Positions 1 through 14,706 of a stretch of 64,000 nt of DNA are shown in pieces (the stretch's first letter is position 1; every line of letters begins with the position of its first letter). The notes beneath the pieces are model-generated. The model was not told the DNA's origin, made no database searches, and worked only from the letters and a program-made list of their open reading frames with translations. The stretch lies in sequence record OQ174501.1; one strand, given 5' to 3'. The stretch comes from Escherichia phage REP2. A program made the position numbers and the translations under genes.

Positions 1-531
1 GCAGGACTAAGTACTATTATGGAAGGTCTGGAACGTTCTCCAGCGTTCATTCCTATTAAAGAAAAAGGAATTCCATACGAGTATTATCGTCTTCATCAAG
101 TAGACCAAATTAAAATTGCTCCTAATTTGCCAACGCAAATTCTTGACCGTTATGTAAATAGCGAAATGCTTGAACGCATGAGTAAATCCGGATTTGGTTA
201 TCAGCTGAGTAAGTTGGACAAAAAATATCTACAACGTTCTTTAGAATATACTCATCTCGAGCTTGGTGCATGTGGAACAATTCCGGTATTTTGGAAATCT
301 ACTGGCGAAAATTTAAAATTCCGTGTTGATAATACTCCTTTGACCTCGCATGATAGCGGTATCATTTGGTTTGATGAAAATGACATGGAATCAACATTTG
401 AGCGTATTAAAGAACTGTCATCTGACCGAACTCTTTATGACCGTGAACGCGAAAAAGCTTATGAATTTTTGTATCAGCATCAAGATTCAAGCTTCTGCTT
501 TAAAGAACAGTTTGACATTATTACAAAATAA
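1..531 (+). CDS. 3' part of a GT-B glycosyltransferase, by position probably the DNA alpha-glucosyltransferase; 5' end lies upstream of the window
   Basis: Frame open from nt 1 to stop at 529-531; LELGACGTIPVFW resembles the sugar-nucleotide binding region of retaining GT-B enzymes; lies upstream of gene 47 as a-gt does in T4. Confidence 0.5.
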   Translation, partial: AGLSTIMEGLERSPAFIPIKEKGIPYEYYRLHQVDQIKIAPNLPTQILDRYVNSEMLERMSKSGFGYQLSKLDKKYLQRSLEYTHLELGACGTIPVFWKSTGENLKFRVDNTPLTSHDSGIIWFDENDMESTFERIKELSSDRTLYDREREKAYEFLYQHQDSSFCFKEQFDIITK

Positions 532-548
532 AGGGCTTCGGCCCTTTA
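532..548 (+). terminator. rho-independent terminator-like hairpin (GGGC-UUCG-GCCC) with short U tract
   Basis: agggcttcggcccttt immediately after the stop codon; UUCG tetraloop hairpin. Confidence 0.45.
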
Positions 549-707
549 GCTTTATACGGAGTTTGATATAATGATATTTCTTGGATATGTGATACTTTTT
601 CTCGCATTTTATCTATTCGCTAGAGCATGTTGGATTGGGTTCTTTAGCACTCCAGATGGATTTATTTCAATAATTTTATTTTGCATTTCAATGACGGTTC
701 TTGATAT

Positions 708-1331
708 ATGAAAAAATATATAACTTATTTAACAATATATAGTGGAGATAAACTTCCTCCTTTTTATATTGGATCTACGTCTTTAGATAGGCATTTAGCT
801 GGATATCATGGTTCAGTTTTATCTAAAAAGTATAAGAAAATTTATAATAAAGAGCTTTCAGATAATCCTCACTTATTTGATTCATGTATTTTAGCTGAAT
901 TTGATACGCGTGAAGAAGCTATTAAATGCGAGTTATATTATCAACGATTGCATGATGCAGTTAAAAATCCATTATTCTTTAATATGTCATATGCTGCTCC
1001 AAAAGGTTCATTTGGAAGAGATAATAAAGGACAAAATCATCCATTATATGGTTCTCATAATTGTAAAGGAAATATACATTCACATGATCCATTAACAGGA
1101 AAATCTGCCTTTTTGCCTTATATTCCAGAAGGTTATGTAAAAGGAAGGTCAAATAAATTTAAAGCTTCATCACATAATAAAGGTAAAAAATGGTATAATA
1201 ACGGAGTTAAGCAAATGTTATGTCATGAACCTCCTGGTCCTGAATGGACAAAAGGAAAAATTAAAGAACTGGTTTCAAAAGCAGCTAAATTAGGATGGAA
1301 AAGACACCATGAAAATACTAAACTTGGGTGA
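708..1331 (+). CDS. putative free-standing GIY-YIG family homing endonuclease-like protein (seg-like)
   Basis: 207 aa; N-terminal YITYLTIY...FYIGST (GIY/YIG-like), downstream conserved R, E and N positions, C-terminal NUMOD-like G-x-NHPLYG and KGKKWYNNG motifs. Confidence 0.45.
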   Translation: MKKYITYLTIYSGDKLPPFYIGSTSLDRHLAGYHGSVLSKKYKKIYNKELSDNPHLFDSCILAEFDTREEAIKCELYYQRLHDAVKNPLFFNMSYAAPKGSFGRDNKGQNHPLYGSHNCKGNIHSHDPLTGKSAFLPYIPEGYVKGRSNKFKASSHNKGKKWYNNGVKQMLCHEPPGPEWTKGKIKELVSKAAKLGWKRHHENTKLG

Positions 1332-2328
1332 TTGGCATTTAGGCGTTAAAGCTGATGATGAGTGGATTCGCGGTATTCAAATTGATGGAATTAAGCAAGC
1401 GATAGAATATTCTAAGAAAAATGGAATTACTGTATGGATTCAATATGGTGATATTTTTGATGTGCGAAAAGCAATCACACATAAAACTATGGAGTTTGCC
1501 CGTGAAATAGTTCAAATGCTTGATGACGCTGGAATCACATTACATACTATTGTAGGAAATCACGATCTCCACTACAAAAATGTAATGCATCCAAATGCCT
1601 CTACTGAGCTTTTGGCTAAATATCCTAATGTTAAAGTATATGATAAGCCTACTACAGTAGATTTTGACGGATGTTTAATTGATTTAATTCCTTGGATGTG
1701 TGAAGAAAATACTGGTGAAATTCTTGAACACATCAAAACTTCATCTGCTTCTTTTTGTGTTGGTCACTGGGAGCTGAATGGATTTTATTTTTATAAAGGA
1801 ATGAAATCTCATGGTCTTGAACCTGATTTCCTTAAGACTTATAAAGAGGTGTGGTCTGGTCACTTCCATACTATCTCTGAGGCTGCTAACGTCAGATATA
1901 TTGGGACACCATGGACACTAACTGCAGGTGACGAGAATGACCCTCGTGGGTTCTGGATGTTTGATACAGAAACAGAACGAATGGAATTTATTCCAAACAA
2001 TACTACCTGGCATCGTAGAATTCATTATCCATTTAAAGGAAAAATTGACTATAAAGATTTTACAAATTTATCAGTACGTGTTATAGTAACTGAAGTAGAC
2101 AAAAATCTGACGAAGTTCGAATCTGAACTAGAAAAAGTTGTGCATTCATTACGAGTTGTGTCAAAGATTGATAACTCTGTCGAGTCAGATGATAGTGAAG
2201 AAGTTGAAGTTCAATCTCTTCAGACGTTGATGGAAGAATACATTAATGCAATTCCAGACATCACTGATTCTGACCGCGAAGCACTTATTCAATATGCAAA
2301 TCAGTTATATGTAGAGGCAACACAATGA
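1309..2328 (+). CDS. 47: recombination endonuclease subunit gp47 (Mre11-like phosphoesterase)
   Basis: 339 aa; LGDWHLG, YGDIFD and GNHD phosphoesterase motifs; directly upstream of the Rad50-like gene 46. Confidence 0.9.
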   Translation: MKILNLGDWHLGVKADDEWIRGIQIDGIKQAIEYSKKNGITVWIQYGDIFDVRKAITHKTMEFAREIVQMLDDAGITLHTIVGNHDLHYKNVMHPNASTELLAKYPNVKVYDKPTTVDFDGCLIDLIPWMCEENTGEILEHIKTSSASFCVGHWELNGFYFYKGMKSHGLEPDFLKTYKEVWSGHFHTISEAANVRYIGTPWTLTAGDENDPRGFWMFDTETERMEFIPNNTTWHRRIHYPFKGKIDYKDFTNLSVRVIVTEVDKNLTKFESELEKVVHSLRVVSKIDNSVESDDSEEVEVQSLQTLMEEYINAIPDITDSDREALIQYANQLYVEATQ

Positions 2329-2775: not shown

Positions 2776-4460
2776 AGAATTTTAAACTAAACCGAGTTAG
2801 GTATCAAAATATAATGTCAGTAGGTGGAAATCCTATTGACATTCAATTAGATAAGGTTCAAAAAACTCTTATTACTGGACGAAATGGCGGTGGTAAGTCT
2901 ACTATGTTAGAAGCCATCACATTTGGGCTTTTTGGCAAGCCATTTCGTGATGTAAAGAAAGGTCAATTAATAAACAGCACAAATAAGAAAGAACTTTTAG
3001 TTGAACTGTGGATGGAATATGATGAGAAAAAGTACTATATCAAAAGAGGACAAAAACCAAACGTTTTCGAAATCACCGTTAACGGTACACGTCTTAATGA
3101 ATCTGCCAGCAGTAAAGATTTCCAAGCAGAATTTGAACAGCTTATCGGAATGTCATATGCCAGTTTCAAGCAGATTGTTGTCCTTGGTACAGCAGGGTAT
3201 ACCCCTTTCATGGGTTTGTCGACCCCTGCGCGAAGAAAGCTTGTGGAAGACCTGCTTGAGGTAGGAACATTAGCTGAAATGGATAAGCTTAATAAAGCAC
3301 TAATACGTGAATTAAATTCGCAGAACCAAGTGCTTGATGTTAAAAAAGATAGTATTATCCAACAAATTAAAATATATAATGATAACGTTGAACGCCAGAA
3401 AAAATTAACGGGTGACAACCTTACACGTCTACAAAATATGTATGATGATTTGGCAAAAGAAGCTAGAACGCTAAAATCGGAAATAGAAGAAGCTAACGAA
3501 AGATTAGTTAATATTGTTTTGGATGAAGACCCGACTGATGCATTTAATAAAATCGGTCAAGAAGCAGTTTTAATTAAATCAAAAATTGACTCGTATAATA
3601 AAGTCATTAATATGTATCACGAAGGTGGATTATGTCCAACCTGTTTGTCACAATTAAGTTCCGGTGATAAAGTTGTTTCTAAAATTAAAGATAAAGTTTC
3701 TGAATGTACGCATTCGTTTGAACAGCTTTCAACACACCGTGATAATTTAAAAGTTCTTGTTGATGAATACCGAGATAATATTAAAACTCAGCAGTCGTTG
3801 GCAAATGATATTCGCAATAAAAAGCAATCTCTAATCACGACGGTAGATAAAGCTAAAAAAGTTAAAGCAGCTATAGAAAAAGCATCTTCTGAGTTTATTG
3901 ACCATGCTGATGAAATAGCACTGCTTCAAGAAGAACTTGATAAAATTGTTAAGACAAAAACTAATTTAGTAATGGAAAAATACCACCGAGGAATTTTGAC
4001 TGATATGCTCAAAGATTCTGGTATTAAAGGTGCTATTATTAAAAAGTACATTCCATTATTTAATAAGCAGATTAACCATTATCTTAAAATAATGGAAGCG
4101 GATTATGTGTTTACATTAGATGAAGAATTTAATGAGACAATTAAATCCCGTGGTCGTGAAGATTTTAGTTATGCTTCATTCAGTCAAGGTGAAAAAGCAC
4201 GAATTGATATTGCTCTTTTATTTACTTGGCGTGATATTGCTGAAAAAGTTTCAGGTGTTAAAATAAGTTGTTTATTTCTTGATGAAGTGTATGACGGTGC
4301 ATTTGATGCTGAAGGCATTAAAAATGTAGCTAAAATTTTAGATGGTTTGAAGGATACCAACTTCTTCATAATTTCGCATAAAGACCATGATCCGCAGGAT
4401 TATGGACAGCATATTAAAATGGAAAAAGTTGGTAGATTTAGTGTTGCCACTATTAATTAA
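2772..4460 (+). CDS. 46: recombination endonuclease subunit gp46 (Rad50/SbcC-like ATPase)
   Basis: 562 aa; Walker A GRNGGGKST, long central coiled-coil, zinc-hook-like CPTC, C-terminal LFLDEV signature region; apparent GTG start. Confidence 0.9.
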   Translation: MKNFKLNRVRYQNIMSVGGNPIDIQLDKVQKTLITGRNGGGKSTMLEAITFGLFGKPFRDVKKGQLINSTNKKELLVELWMEYDEKKYYIKRGQKPNVFEITVNGTRLNESASSKDFQAEFEQLIGMSYASFKQIVVLGTAGYTPFMGLSTPARRKLVEDLLEVGTLAEMDKLNKALIRELNSQNQVLDVKKDSIIQQIKIYNDNVERQKKLTGDNLTRLQNMYDDLAKEARTLKSEIEEANERLVNIVLDEDPTDAFNKIGQEAVLIKSKIDSYNKVINMYHEGGLCPTCLSQLSSGDKVVSKIKDKVSECTHSFEQLSTHRDNLKVLVDEYRDNIKTQQSLANDIRNKKQSLITTVDKAKKVKAAIEKASSEFIDHADEIALLQEELDKIVKTKTNLVMEKYHRGILTDMLKDSGIKGAIIKKYIPLFNKQINHYLKIMEADYVFTLDEEFNETIKSRGREDFSYASFSQGEKARIDIALLFTWRDIAEKVSGVKISCLFLDEVYDGAFDAEGIKNVAKILDGLKDTNFFIISHKDHDPQDYGQHIKMEKVGRFSVATIN

Positions 4461-5170
4461 TGTTTGTGCTTACAGTTATCATTATGCCACCTTGATAAAT
4501 TTCCGAAAGTGGTAACTTTACCGCAATGGACGCAAGTACCAGTCTTTTCAGTTTTCTTGCGTCCATTTGGATTTTTCTTGCAGAAATTTCTATGCGCTGC
4601 GATAACGCATTTCTTGCCTATCATTCCGCAGAATTCGCAGGATGTTTCTTCAAGAACGATTGCTTTAAGCCCGTTTGAGATATTATTTCTGTGTTCTTTA
4701 GACATTGGTGGTCTAACTTTAGGATTAGGGTGATTTGGGCAGTTATCAAAATGCCAACGATTCATATTCCCGCTTAATCCAGACTTACCGCAATGAGGAC
4801 AAGTTAGTCTTGCTTTATTAGCTACTGCATCAGACATTTTCTTTCGTGTCTCTTGGGAGAATTCTTTGTTCTTTTCTATTTCCCAGAGTTTACGACGAAT
4901 CCAACCGAAAGTTTTATTGTTGCGTTTAGCGTATTTCGTAGAAACTGTCATCATGTTAGCAGCATAGACTAATTTTGGTTCAGAAGGATAAATTTTTACT
5001 AAAAGTTGATGAGCTACATAGTGCTCTTCTGGTGTTAAATCTACTAAGTTTGAAGCATCATCACTTCCATTTAAACAGCGCGGTATAATGTGATGAGATT
5101 CAGTATAACAATCAAGTTTTCGAGATTTAGCATTAGAGATTAACTTTTCATAAATTAGTTTATAATTCAT
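4457..5170 (-). CDS. free-standing HNH family homing endonuclease with three C-terminal CxxC zinc-finger repeats
   Basis: 237 aa on the opposite strand to all neighbours; HNH motif SHHIIPRCLNGSDDASNLVDLTPEEHYVAH; repeats CPHCG..RWHFDNC; SD AAGGAT upstream of the ATG. Confidence 0.7.
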   Translation of the reverse strand: MNYKLIYEKLISNAKSRKLDCYTESHHIIPRCLNGSDDASNLVDLTPEEHYVAHQLLVKIYPSEPKLVYAANMMTVSTKYAKRNNKTFGWIRRKLWEIEKNKEFSQETRKKMSDAVANKARLTCPHCGKSGLSGNMNRWHFDNCPNHPNPKVRPPMSKEHRNNISNGLKAIVLEETSCEFCGMIGKKCVIAAHRNFCKKNPNGRKKTEKTGTCVHCGKVTTFGNLSRWHNDNCKHKH

Positions 5171-12495: not shown

Positions 12496-13236
12496 ATGAT
12501 TAGTGACTCTATGACAGTTGAAGAAATCCGTCTTCATTTGGGGCTTGCATTAAAAGAAAAAGATTTCGTAGTTGATAAAACTGGCGTTAAAACTATTGAA
12601 ATTATTGGCGCATCATTTATAGCAGATGAACCGTTTATTTTTGGCGCTCTTAATGATGAATACATTCAGCGTGAACTTGAATGGTATAAATCTAAGAGCT
12701 TGTTCGTTAAAGATATTCCGGGTGAAACACCGAAGATTTGGCAACAAGTAGCATCTTCTAAAGGTGAAATTAACTCGAATTATGGCTGGGCTATCTGGTC
12801 AGAAGATAACTATGCCCAGTATGATATGTGTTTAGCTGAACTTGGTCAAAATCCTGATTCTCGACGTGGTATCATGATTTATACTCGTCCATCCATGCAA
12901 TTTGACTACAATAAAGATGGTATGTCAGATTTCATGTGTACTAATACAGTACAGTACCTGATTCGTGATAAGAAAGTCAATGCGGTTGTTAGCATGAGAA
13001 GCAATGATTGCTGGGCAGGCTATCGTAATGATTATGCTTGGCAAAAATACGTACTAGATAAATTAGTATCTGATTTGAATGCAGGCGACCCATCGCGGCA
13101 ATATAAAGCAGGTTCTATTATATGGAACGTTGGAAGTCTTCATGTGTACGAAAATCAGTTTTATTTAGTTGACCATTGGTGGAACACCGGTGAGACTCAT
13201 ATTGCTAAAAAGGATTATACTGGAAAATGGAAGTAA
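12496..13236 (+). CDS. 42: dCMP hydroxymethylase gp42
   Basis: 246 aa; thymidylate-synthase-like fold signatures; T4 synteny and size. Confidence 0.9.
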   Translation: MISDSMTVEEIRLHLGLALKEKDFVVDKTGVKTIEIIGASFIADEPFIFGALNDEYIQRELEWYKSKSLFVKDIPGETPKIWQQVASSKGEINSNYGWAIWSEDNYAQYDMCLAELGQNPDSRRGIMIYTRPSMQFDYNKDGMSDFMCTNTVQYLIRDKKVNAVVSMRSNDCWAGYRNDYAWQKYVLDKLVSDLNAGDPSRQYKAGSIIWNVGSLHVYENQFYLVDHWWNTGETHIAKKDYTGKWK

Positions 13237-13867
13237 ATGTGCCACATGTTTATAAGTATAAACATCCTAAAACTAAAAAGTGGTATATAGGAAGTCATGA
13301 TGGTCACAACCCGAATTATGATGGTTCGGGTGTAGTTTGGCAACATGCTAAAAAGAAATATGGAATAAAATCCTTTAATAAAGAAATATTATATGAAGGA
13401 CCAATGTTTAGACAGGTTGAAGAAATTATTTTAACTTGTTTAGATGCTGCTAATTGTCCGGATTCATATAATTTAAAGAATGAAGCATGGGGAGGAAGTT
13501 TTCCAGGCAAATTAAATGGAATGTACGGTAAAAACTATCTCCAGAAGAAAGATATAAGTGCGGAAATGCCTTTCGTGGAATCAAGCGTCCTGATCATTCT
13601 AAAAGAATGAAAGGCGAAGGTAATCCAATGTATGGTAAAAATGAGCAGGCATATGGAATTATAAATCGAGCCAAGGAAAATTCTGGTAAAACTTATGAAG
13701 AAATTTTTGGCGTAGAAAAAGCTAAAATAATTAAAGAAACGATGTCTAAAAATCGTAAAGGAAAACCTCATAATTTGATAGAAAAAATATGTCCGCATTG
13801 CGGACTAAAAGGACGTGGGCCAAATATGACAAGATACCATTTTGACAAATGTAAGGCACTTAAATGA
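13227..13867 (+). pseudogene. GIY-YIG homing endonuclease (seg-like) interrupted by a frameshift (frame 0 13227-13610, frame +2 13532-13867)
   Basis: N-terminal VYKYKHPKTKKWYIGS GIY-YIG motif; NUMOD-like GMYGKN / GNPMYGKN repeats continue across a frame change at the A5 run 13530-13534; C-terminal CPHCG..RYHFDKC zinc finger. Confidence 0.6.
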
Positions 13868-14706
13868 TTCAATTCGTAATTCCAAGTTATCAGCGTGTAG
13901 GGGCAGTTTCTGCCCTTAATATGTTTCCGACTGATTATGAACCCCATATTGTAGTGCGTGAACACGAAGAAAAAGCTTATTATGATGCTTATGGGTCTAG
14001 AGCTAAAATTATAACTATTCCTGATGATGTAAACGGAATTGCCGGTACTCGTAAAGCAATTACTGATATGTATGCAGGCCAACGAATCTGGATGATTGAC
14101 GATGATACTACTATTCGTATGAGTTCAATGCGAAAAAGAGATGACCGTCGTTGCGTGGATAAAGTCAATCAATTGACTCATGAACAGTTCTATGAATTGA
14201 TTCAATACGTCGAAGATGCCATGGATTGCGGGTATTATCACGGTCATGCTCGCCTACCAATTTTTAAAATTACTTCATCTTGGGGTAATTATCGTGAAAA
14301 TTCATATGGATTCACGAATACATGGTATGACCTTGGAAAACTTACGACAGAACAAATTGGGTATGGAAAAATTGATTTGTGCGAAGATATGTATGCATTT
14401 CTTAATTTAATTAATCAAGGTTATCCGCATTTGGCCTTGTTCAAATATCTGGTTGTATCTGGAAAAGCGCAAGCTCCTGGTGGGTGTAGTTCAATTCGTA
14501 GTAATTCTAAACATAATAGAGCGCTTGAGCAAATCAATAGAGAGTTTCCAGAGCAAGCTCGTTGGAAAACTTCTAATATCGAAAAACGAAAATCGTTGGG
14601 TGAAGAAGACGAGCCATTAAAGGTTCTTCGCATGTGTGTTTCGCGTAAAGAAAAATCAGAAGCATTTCATAAGTTTAATGCTATTCATCCAATAGCAGTT
14701 GATTAA
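13864..14706 (+). CDS. putative GT-A fold (GT2-like) glycosyltransferase, candidate DNA hydroxymethylcytosine sugar transferase
   Basis: 280 aa; N-terminal FVIPSYQR, acidic IITIPDD and DXD-type WMIDDDT motifs; occupies the slot between gene 42 and uvsX where T4 has beta-gt. Confidence 0.55.
   Translation: MIQFVIPSYQRVGAVSALNMFPTDYEPHIVVREHEEKAYYDAYGSRAKIITIPDDVNGIAGTRKAITDMYAGQRIWMIDDDTTIRMSSMRKRDDRRCVDKVNQLTHEQFYELIQYVEDAMDCGYYHGHARLPIFKITSSWGNYRENSYGFTNTWYDLGKLTTEQIGYGKIDLCEDMYAFLNLINQGYPHLALFKYLVVSGKAQAPGGCSSIRSNSKHNRALEQINREFPEQARWKTSNIEKRKSLGEEDEPLKVLRMCVSRKEKSEAFHKFNAIHPIAVD

Follow-up and report, generated by a model that had tools for sequence, protein, structure and literature searches.

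Results

Gene content of the a-gt/47 junction

The window, that is, the whole 64,000-nucleotide stretch of the Escherichia phage REP2 record (OQ174501.1) analyzed here, matches Escherichia phage REP3, a member of Tequatrovirus, with 100% identity across the first 2.4 kb. An earlier reading of the window, made from the sequence alone, placed an ORF at 708–1331, and these coordinates proved exact: the ORF lies on the plus strand, starts with the ATG at 708, ends with a TGA at 1331, and is intact, encoding 207 amino acids. That sequence-only reading also counted three homing-endonuclease-like genes within the first 14 kb, and the other two were indeed located at 4457..5170 (−) and 13227..13610 (+). 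The features of the locus were as follows.

19..531, 3' end of a-gt (Pfam AGT, 1e-83)
529..548, UUCG-loop hairpin after a-gt
571..711 (+), gene 47.1, 46 aa, the upstream neighbor (phrog_6693 at 6e-31; T4 and RB14 annotation)
708..1331 (+), Seg-type (SegE-like) GIY-YIG homing endonuclease gene, 207 aa (ORF, Pfam, PHROG, predicted fold, BLASTP)
708..714 (+), ATGAAAA, left member of the 7-nt direct-repeat pair that bounds the insert (T4, RB14, and T6 alignment)
708..1000 (+), catalytic GIY-YIG domain, residues 1 to ~97 (pLDDT, conserved columns, Seg/I-TevI alignment, N-domain profile)
1001..1061 (+), low-confidence linker with the NUMOD3-like half motif GQNHPLYG (pLDDT of 56 for residues 101–120)
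1062..1265 (+), two beta-hairpin repeats, KGNIHSHDPLTGKSAFLPYIPEGYVKGR and KGKKWYNNGVKQMLCHEPPGPEWTKGK, presumed to bind DNA (model, SegE alignment)
1263..1331 (+), C-terminal helix and tail (helix 186–203 in the model)
1309..1315 (+), right copy of ATGAAAA, the present gene 47 start (alignment)
1309..2328 (+), gene 47, Mre11/SbcD-like recombination nuclease subunit (Pfam Metallophos; REP3 and T4 annotation)
1317..1326 (+), four silent substitutions in gene 47 codons 3–6 (ATA CTA AAC TTG in REP3 versus ATT TTA AAT TTA in T4)

The stop codon of 47.1 overlaps the start of the endonuclease gene at one end, and at the other end the start codon and ribosome-binding region of gene 47, the probable target gene of the endonuclease, lie inside the endonuclease ORF.

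Insertion anatomy and expression

Alignment with T4, RB14, and T6 showed that the gene is carried by a cassette corresponding to a single clean 601-bp insertion/deletion at the overlap between the 47.1 stop and the gene 47 start. In T4, this stop and start overlap as ATGA, and in REP3 that same ATG (708) is the start codon of the endonuclease. Because the cassette ends in a second ATGAAAA (1309), the insert is bounded by a 7-nt direct repeat. The last 23 nt of the ORF (1309..1331) are read twice, once as the first codons of gene 47 in another frame; the last eight codons of the endonuclease (HENTKLG and the stop) are thus an out-of-frame reading from the gene 47 start. The G+C content of the cassette is ~28–30%, versus ~35–37% in its flanks.

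A scan for sigma-70-like promoters returned matches at the level expected by chance, none of them specific to the cassette, and no T4 late-promoter box (TATAAATA) was found near the gene. The only notable element in the promoter and terminator scans was the UUCG-loop hairpin after a-gt. In view of these scans, the endonuclease gene is presumably co-transcribed with 47.1–47. No clear ribosome-binding site of its own precedes the gene, and the RNA structures predicted around both start codons were no more stable than those of shuffled sequence (z = +0.7 to +1.5), so there was no sign that a ribosome-binding site is sequestered. The endonuclease uses the start codon that belongs to gene 47 in T4, together with its upstream context, and is therefore probably translationally coupled to 47.1. 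Both co-transcription and translational coupling have been described for several free-standing endonucleases of T4, for which start/stop overlap with the upstream gene and embedded signals of host genes are typical (PMC2988022).

A divergent GIY-YIG catalytic domain

The GIY/YIG signature that had been read at the N-terminus is real but divergent. A profile search with the Pfam GIY-YIG model (PF01541) matched residues 4–84 with E = 3.1e-4, and the tyrosines of the motif are conserved, although the score of 21.4 bits falls 1.2 bits short of the curated gathering score of 22.6. Such a borderline value is normal for the Seg branch, because T4 SegE, which is listed among the active GIY-YIG homing endonucleases (Edgell et al. 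2010 review, PMC2988022), obtained only 21.6 bits with the same model. A search of a large protein collection yielded 170 relatives at E ≤ 1e-5, many with NUMOD3 repeats, and PF01541 was matched at E ≤ 0.01 by 14 of the 41 relatives that were aligned. In this alignment, Y33, G35, S39, L56, F57, A71, E75, and N92 were invariant, and Y7, T9, Y11, Y20, I21, G22, S23, K40, and R68 were nearly so. The catalytic set, namely the GIY tyrosines Y7 and Y11, Y20-I21-G22, the glutamate E75, and the asparagine N92, is thus invariant or nearly so across the 41 relatives. N92 aligns with N90 of I-TevI, and E75 falls at most one column from E75 of I-TevI.

The AlphaFold model built from the 41-relative alignment had a mean pLDDT of 85, rising to 93–98 across residues 1–90, and predicted the GIY-YIG alpha/beta fold, a three-stranded sheet flanked by helices. 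The elements of the modeled catalytic domain follow in the order strand–strand–helix, helix, strand, helix, and its motif residues are Y7/Y11, Y20-I21-G22, G32-Y33-x-G35-S36, E75, and N92. When the model was compared with solved structures in Foldseek, two entries of the I-TevI catalytic domain, 1LN0 and 1MK0, ranked highest (probability 0.99), ahead of Slx1 and UvrC. This link to I-TevI came only from the comparison of predicted folds: sequence searches of the solved structures, with both the single protein and the 41-sequence profile, gave nothing meaningful, and the sole match in an hhalign comparison of the family with I-TevI was a NUMOD3-like stretch, at 13% probability. The search of NCBIfam returned no relevant family for the ORF product.

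One canonical residue lacks an equivalent. R28 is present in the ORF product, and its column is occupied by R, K, Q, or E among the 41 relatives, whereas neither this family nor T4 SegA–E contains an equivalent of the I-TevI segment that bears R27. The missing conserved equivalent of R27 is compatible with membership in the Seg branch because active T4 Seg enzymes also lack it. The ORF product is assigned to the GIY-YIG class as a divergent member, and what settles this assignment is the predicted fold together with the sequence comparison with SegE described below.

Hairpin repeats in the C-terminal half

The C-terminal half had been read as carrying NUMOD-like motifs, of which one fragment stood. 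The search with the C-terminal half alone against Pfam NUMOD3 (PF07460) gave a match of 10 residues (NKGQNHPLYG; E = 0.87, 10 bits), and the whole protein had no match to this model at E ≤ 1. The GQNHPLYG stretch aligns with genuine NUMOD3 repeats of relatives, such repeats being present in 19 of the 41. The remainder of the C-terminal half consists instead of SegE-like hairpin repeats and a helix: in the model, the hairpin strands are formed by residues 123–126/133–136 and 161–164/169–172, and KGNIHSHDPLTGKSAFLPYIPEGYVKGR and KGKKWYNNGVKQMLCHEPPGPEWTKGK align with the SegE repeats CYTNG...PEGFVKG and FWVNNG...PDGFIKGR, respectively. C-terminal profile matches to MobD and SegA were also obtained, but they lie in an extension of longer relatives and were not used as evidence for this ORF because the extension is absent from the 207-aa protein.

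Relationship to SegE and other known endonucleases

To place the protein among its T4 relatives, the ten GIY-YIG proteins of T4 (NC_000866) were searched with a profile of the N-terminal 100 residues of the family. SegE scored highest (26 bits), followed by SegG (20), SegB (17), SegD (14), SegA (12), and SegC (9.5), and the scores of I-TevI, I-TevII, SegF, and DenA were approximately zero. The ranking was the same against a background of 815 ORFs from T4 and the window (SegE, 1.3e-6; SegG, 1.9e-5; SegB, 1.1e-4; SegD, 1.6e-3; SegA, 5.7e-3). BLASTP against T4 SegE produced one collinear alignment with 28% identity over 193 aa (E = 2e-5), which covered the nuclease domain and both C-terminal repeats. 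A G-Y-x-G-S element after the YIG motif is a hallmark common to these proteins, reading DGYMGSG in SegA–E and AGYHGSV in the ORF product. Judged by these sequence comparisons, SegE is the closest T4 relative across both domains, and it was the best T4 match for the N-domain and the C-domain alike.

The two proteins share the same two-part architecture at nearly the same length (205 aa in SegE and 207 aa here), in which a Seg-type GIY-YIG domain is followed by two hairpin repeats of the form (W/C)Y(N/T)NG...P(E/D)G(F/Y/W)xKG(R/K), and their scores with the Pfam GIY-YIG model are equally borderline. Both genes are free-standing, lie on the same strand as their neighbors, and are located directly 5' of a conserved DNA-metabolism gene. 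They differ in insertion site, which for the free-standing T4 SegE lies between inh and uvsW (Kadyrov et al. 1997, via PMC2988022), and presumably in target, uvsW for SegE and gene 47 here. Furthermore, the Pfam SegE_GIY-YIG model (PF19835) scores SegE at 6e-9, whereas the ORF product had no match to it at E ≤ 1, and a segment at approximately residues 37–47 (SKKYKKIY) is absent from SegA–E. With SegA, SegB, SegC, SegD, and SegG, the ORF product shares a related catalytic domain, and the gene shares with theirs an intergenic position beside conserved genes, a patchy occurrence among T-even phages, and overlaps with neighboring ORFs (PMC2988022); their C-terminal modules, however, are unlike its own.

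I-TevI is the intron-encoded GIY-YIG endonuclease of the T4 td intron. Its catalytic domain is the best solved-structure match, with E75 and N90 of I-TevI corresponding to E75 and N92, but the two catalytic domains have no detectable sequence-profile similarity, and the ORF product is not intron-encoded and lacks a zinc finger, a helix-turn-helix, and an aligned counterpart of R27. The classification of the ORF as a GIY-YIG gene of the homing-endonuclease type, proposed from the sequence alone, is therefore borne out by the predicted fold and the sequence relationship with the Seg family.

Distribution of the cassette within Tequatrovirus

Comparison of the a-gt/47 junction across phage records revealed an insertion/deletion polymorphism with exact boundaries. 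The cassette was present in 68 of the 521 records matching the junction (approximately one in eight), and the rest had the 800-bp insert-free form; a tblastn search likewise found the protein at ≥90% identity in 68 records. T4, T2, T6, and RB14 lack the cassette, and the alignment shows that T4, RB14, and T6 pass directly from 47.1 to 47, which agrees with the earlier expectation that T4 has no counterpart at this site. A scan of IMG/VR with a conserved gene 47 word recovered only six loci, all insert-free and too few for statistics.

The cassettes of five Tequatrovirus carriers diverged by up to 4% in nucleotide sequence. A very recent sweep was considered and rejected, the insert being no more conserved than its flanks among Tequatrovirus carriers.

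Silent changes linked to the cassette

Genomes bearing the insert have three to four silent changes in gene 47 codons 3–6. Against ZN18 and an IMG/VR contig, the insert-free sequences closest to it, REP3 showed 14 differences over 783 flanking positions. Four of these 14 fell within the 10 nt directly after the cassette, where ~0.18 would be expected per 10 nt; codons 3–6 of these insert-free relatives read ATT TTA AAT TTA, as in T4. Among the carriers read, A9, C15, and G18 were present in five of five, and P922 keeps T at position 10. Counts made with short diagnostic megablast queries against the phage collection gave 76 records with the REP3 form of codons 3–6 and 476 with the T4 form. Nine records had the REP3 form without the cassette (SHFML-26 in two accessions, UGKSEcP1, UGKSEcP2, BCPEco_001, BCPSen_003, PBM-1, Ec_YwIITB1, and EPIMAM01), and in SHFML-26 and UGKSEcP1 the absence of the cassette was confirmed by reading the sequence. 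A similar pattern was seen in Dhakavirus, in which QL01, with the cassette, is set apart from JS98 and FB, without it, by five silent differences within these four codons; the next 24 bases are identical. The Dhakavirus background is more diverged overall than that of the REP3 comparison.

Self-protection of the carrier from its own enzyme and co-conversion of a piece of donor sequence are both candidate explanations of the changes in codons 3–6. It is also possible that the changes are merely linked to the insert, or that they were selected through the overlapping tail of the endonuclease, in whose frame all four are non-synonymous. Tight physical linkage would by itself be enough to hold these changes together with the insert. 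As for the nine records without the cassette, they could derive from exact loss through the ATGAAAA repeats, or they could carry a resistant allele that existed beforehand.

Discussion

Predicted homing at gene 47

The ORF at 708..1331 is most probably a free-standing GIY-YIG homing endonuclease gene of the T4 Seg family, carried in a 601-bp cassette at the 47.1/47 junction, and is predicted to spread by homing. It is an ordinary mobile gene of a known kind and not a new kind of element. Among the Seg proteins, site-specific endonuclease activity is known for SegA, B, C, E, F, and G, which target the conserved gene next to their own; their spread occurs by intronless homing, in the course of which flanking markers are co-converted (Belle et al. 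2002 and Liu et al. 2003, via PMC2988022). By analogy, in a mixed infection with an insert-free relative, the enzyme would cut the genome of that relative in or near the 5' end of gene 47, and the break would be repaired by phage recombination with the insert-bearing genome as the template. The cassette and nearby markers would then be over-inherited, that is, intronless homing with localized marker exclusion would result. Indirect support for such cleavage and biased inheritance comes only from the cluster of silent changes linked to the insert. The carrier itself may be protected by the interrupted 47.1/47 junction, by the silent changes in codons 3–6, or by both. With the gene 47 start embedded in it, the cassette could be lost without harm only by an exact excision, which would favor its retention. 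The gp46/47 nuclease, whose Mre11-like subunit is the product of gene 47, is named in a review among the possible participants in break processing during homing, which is a curiosity here and not evidence. Our literature search found no paper naming or testing the gene.

A more specific version of these events, which we regard as unlikely although worth stating, is that the endonuclease recognizes its own junction (the 47.1 stop/47 start together with codons 1–6), that the wobble changes in codons 3–6 confer immunity and also circulate as insert-free "resistant" alleles, and that the cassette is retained partly as an expression element of gene 47. On such a reading, the cassette would provide the translation start of the Mre11-like nuclease that processes the very breaks that homing needs. 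The only insert-linked mark here lies within 18 nt of the cassette, whereas the characterized free-standing endonucleases, including the Seg enzymes, usually cut hundreds of base pairs from their own genes (PMC2988022), and for this reason the junction should not be assumed to be the cleavage site.

Decay and selection

Returning to the preferred reading of a Seg-family homing endonuclease, some copies of the gene have decayed. In GEP001, the codon of G183 has become a stop codon; KNP1 and KNP5 share a 124-nt internal deletion; and the copies of ESh36 and ZCEC15 match in two pieces and, to judge from this, are probably frameshifted. Such broken or probably broken copies would be expected if the ORF were an inactive relic, a former homing endonuclease that is decaying and is kept only because the start of gene 47 is embedded in it, an arrangement that would select against imprecise loss. 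The non-conserved canonical arginine of I-TevI and the lack of a promoter or a clear ribosome-binding site of its own point in the same direction. Nevertheless, the REP3 copy is full length and retains all the residues that are invariant in the family, the active Seg enzymes of T4 likewise have no arginine at the aligned position, and the protein is ≥99% identical in 50 records. Moreover, synonymous codon differences between alleles outnumbered non-synonymous ones (19:5, 20:6, and 15:3), indicating purifying selection on the ORF, and this excess of 3–4 to 1 extends over the whole ORF and is not restricted to its 3' end. We therefore consider it improbable that the gene is a relic.

Orthologues and paralogues beyond Tequatrovirus

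A further five Straboviridae lineages carry an orthologue (approximately 50–71% amino acid identity) directly in front of gene 47; they are represented by QL01 (Dhakavirus), SmallBear (a Klebsiella T4-like phage), LC53 (Winklervirus), FBB1 (Roskildevirus), and L9-6 (Biquartavirus). In four of these cases the orthologue overlaps the start of gene 47, and the upstream neighbor varies among the five. In Dhakavirus, the cassette replaces 47.1 and is patchy, occurring in 8 of 109 records. Identities between genera ranged over 47–71% for the endonuclease and 48–72% for gp47, and because the two divergences track each other, the association of the endonuclease with gene 47 appears to be old and widespread. 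The sequence-only reading had taken the gene for a lineage-specific mobile insertion. Its mobility is consistent with the insertion/deletion polymorphism at exact boundaries, but the orthologues and their divergence contradict the restriction to one lineage, and the gene was not a recent acquisition of a single lineage. Paralogues with the same nuclease domain and NUMOD3 C-termini were found immediately 5' of gene 39 (Bp7 and TG1), which is the pattern expected if a change of the DNA-binding module alters the target.

An old association with gene 47 would also be compatible with an ancestral resident gene that benefits its phage, by regulating or assisting gp46/gp47 or by excluding competitors, and that has been lost repeatedly, including from T4. 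Consistent with this, the gene occupies the same position in six Straboviridae lineages with a divergence that follows gp47, the insert is as diverged as its flanks within Tequatrovirus, and its translation feeds into gene 47. However, its presence is patchy within single genera and its boundaries are clean; it replaces 47.1 in Dhakavirus and lies beside it in Tequatrovirus; all of its relatives are of the homing-endonuclease type, with paralogues at another site; most T4-like phages do without it; and PADLOC defense-system models gave no match. Taken together, these observations make a resident gene of this kind very improbable, and a mobile Seg-family endonuclease that has long been associated with gene 47 remains the preferred reading.

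Annotation and significance

The ORF product is labeled an HNH endonuclease in the RefSeq records of REP3 and many relatives, and the best PHROG match, phrog_10820 (1e-94), bears the same label, whereas phrog_314 (5e-18) is a "homing endonuclease"; longer members of the family share a C-terminal extension with the T4 HNH enzyme MobD, by which route the label may have spread, but that similarity is confined to the extension that the 207-aa protein lacks, no HNH Pfam model matched at E ≤ 1, no HNH structure appeared among the fold matches, and both the predicted fold and the sequence are those of a GIY-YIG protein, so that the profile and fold results refute the HNH class. This corrects the widespread naming, as "HNH endonuclease" or "hypothetical protein", of a gene that dozens of genomes of therapeutic-candidate coliphages carry. 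Some GenBank submitters already use "putative homing endonuclease" for this ORF.

An uncharacterized member of the Seg family now has an exact insertion site and a probable target gene, gene 47. Besides the corrected class name, two by-products of the analysis are a SegE-like gene that is tied to gene 47 across genera and a testable candidate immunity polymorphism. The SegE-like hairpin module at this site and the NUMOD3 repeats in the gene 39 paralogues constitute a small natural case of retargeting by domain exchange. Should the enzyme prove active, markers around genes 47 and 46 would be expected to undergo localized exclusion during mixed Tequatrovirus infections, which bears on recombination within phage cocktails.

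Other endonuclease-like genes and the a-gt region

In addition to the SegE-like ORF at 708..1331, several features of the window relate to endonuclease or glucosyltransferase genes:

529..548: hairpin immediately past the a-gt stop, AAAGGGCUUCGGCCCUUU; perfect 8-bp stem, UUCG tetraloop
4457..5170 (-): 237-aa ORF; phrog_655 'homing endonuclease' (1.5e-68) and Pfam HNH (E=0.007)
13227..13610 (+): 127-aa ORF; phrog_314 'homing endonuclease' (3.9e-20)
13864..14706 (+): 280-aa ORF; Pfam TAGT (TET-associated glycosyltransferase; 5e-10)

The 237-aa ORF, whose HNH match is weak, lies immediately past gene 46 on the opposite strand. It gives the window a second free-standing endonuclease gene. No gene occupies this spot in T4, where gene 46 is followed by 45.2. 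The 127-aa ORF, which overlaps the end of gene 42, had no match in the Pfam search; it matched the same region of phrog_314 as the ORF at 708..1331 and is probably a truncated seg-like gene. The TAGT-domain ORF occupies the region that codes for beta-glucosyltransferase in T4, and the second glucosyltransferase of REP3 appears to differ from that of T4. These phages also have different endonuclease genes flanking a-gt: mobB of T4 (T4 locus L019, 37885..38679) is located between a-gt.2/a-gt.3 and a-gt, whereas none was present there in REP3 (REP3 locus L001, 2085..2329, upstream of a-gt). Conservation of the UUCG hairpin after a-gt extends to T4, RB14, and T6, and hairpins like it lie upstream of the endonuclease gene in LC53 (Winklervirus) and FBB1 (Roskildevirus).

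Paralogues, cassette boundaries, and the gene 47 haplotype

Paralogues were found immediately 5' of, and overlapping, gene 39, which encodes the topoisomerase II large subunit:

L030 (Bp7) 1504..2184: paralogue
L031 (TG1) 1498..2181: paralogue

Both have a Seg-type catalytic domain, as in the ORF at 708..1331, and a NUMOD3 C-terminus, and both are likewise labelled 'HNH endonuclease' in RefSeq.

Among the Dhakavirus phages, the endonuclease gene of QL01 stands in place of 47.1, whereas 47.1 is kept in JS98 and FB (L014 1458..1497 versus L022 817..1014); the cassette's left edge thus varies from genus to genus. The right boundary, at the start of gene 47, is constant between genera.

The gene 47 codon 3–6 haplotype, otherwise linked to the endonuclease gene, was also present, around position 1501, in the insert-free loci of SHFML-26 (L011) and UGKSEcP1 (L013), and seven more insert-free records carried it. 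Such phages either lost the insert by precise deletion between the two ATGAAAA repeats, or else carry a resistant or ancestral allele.
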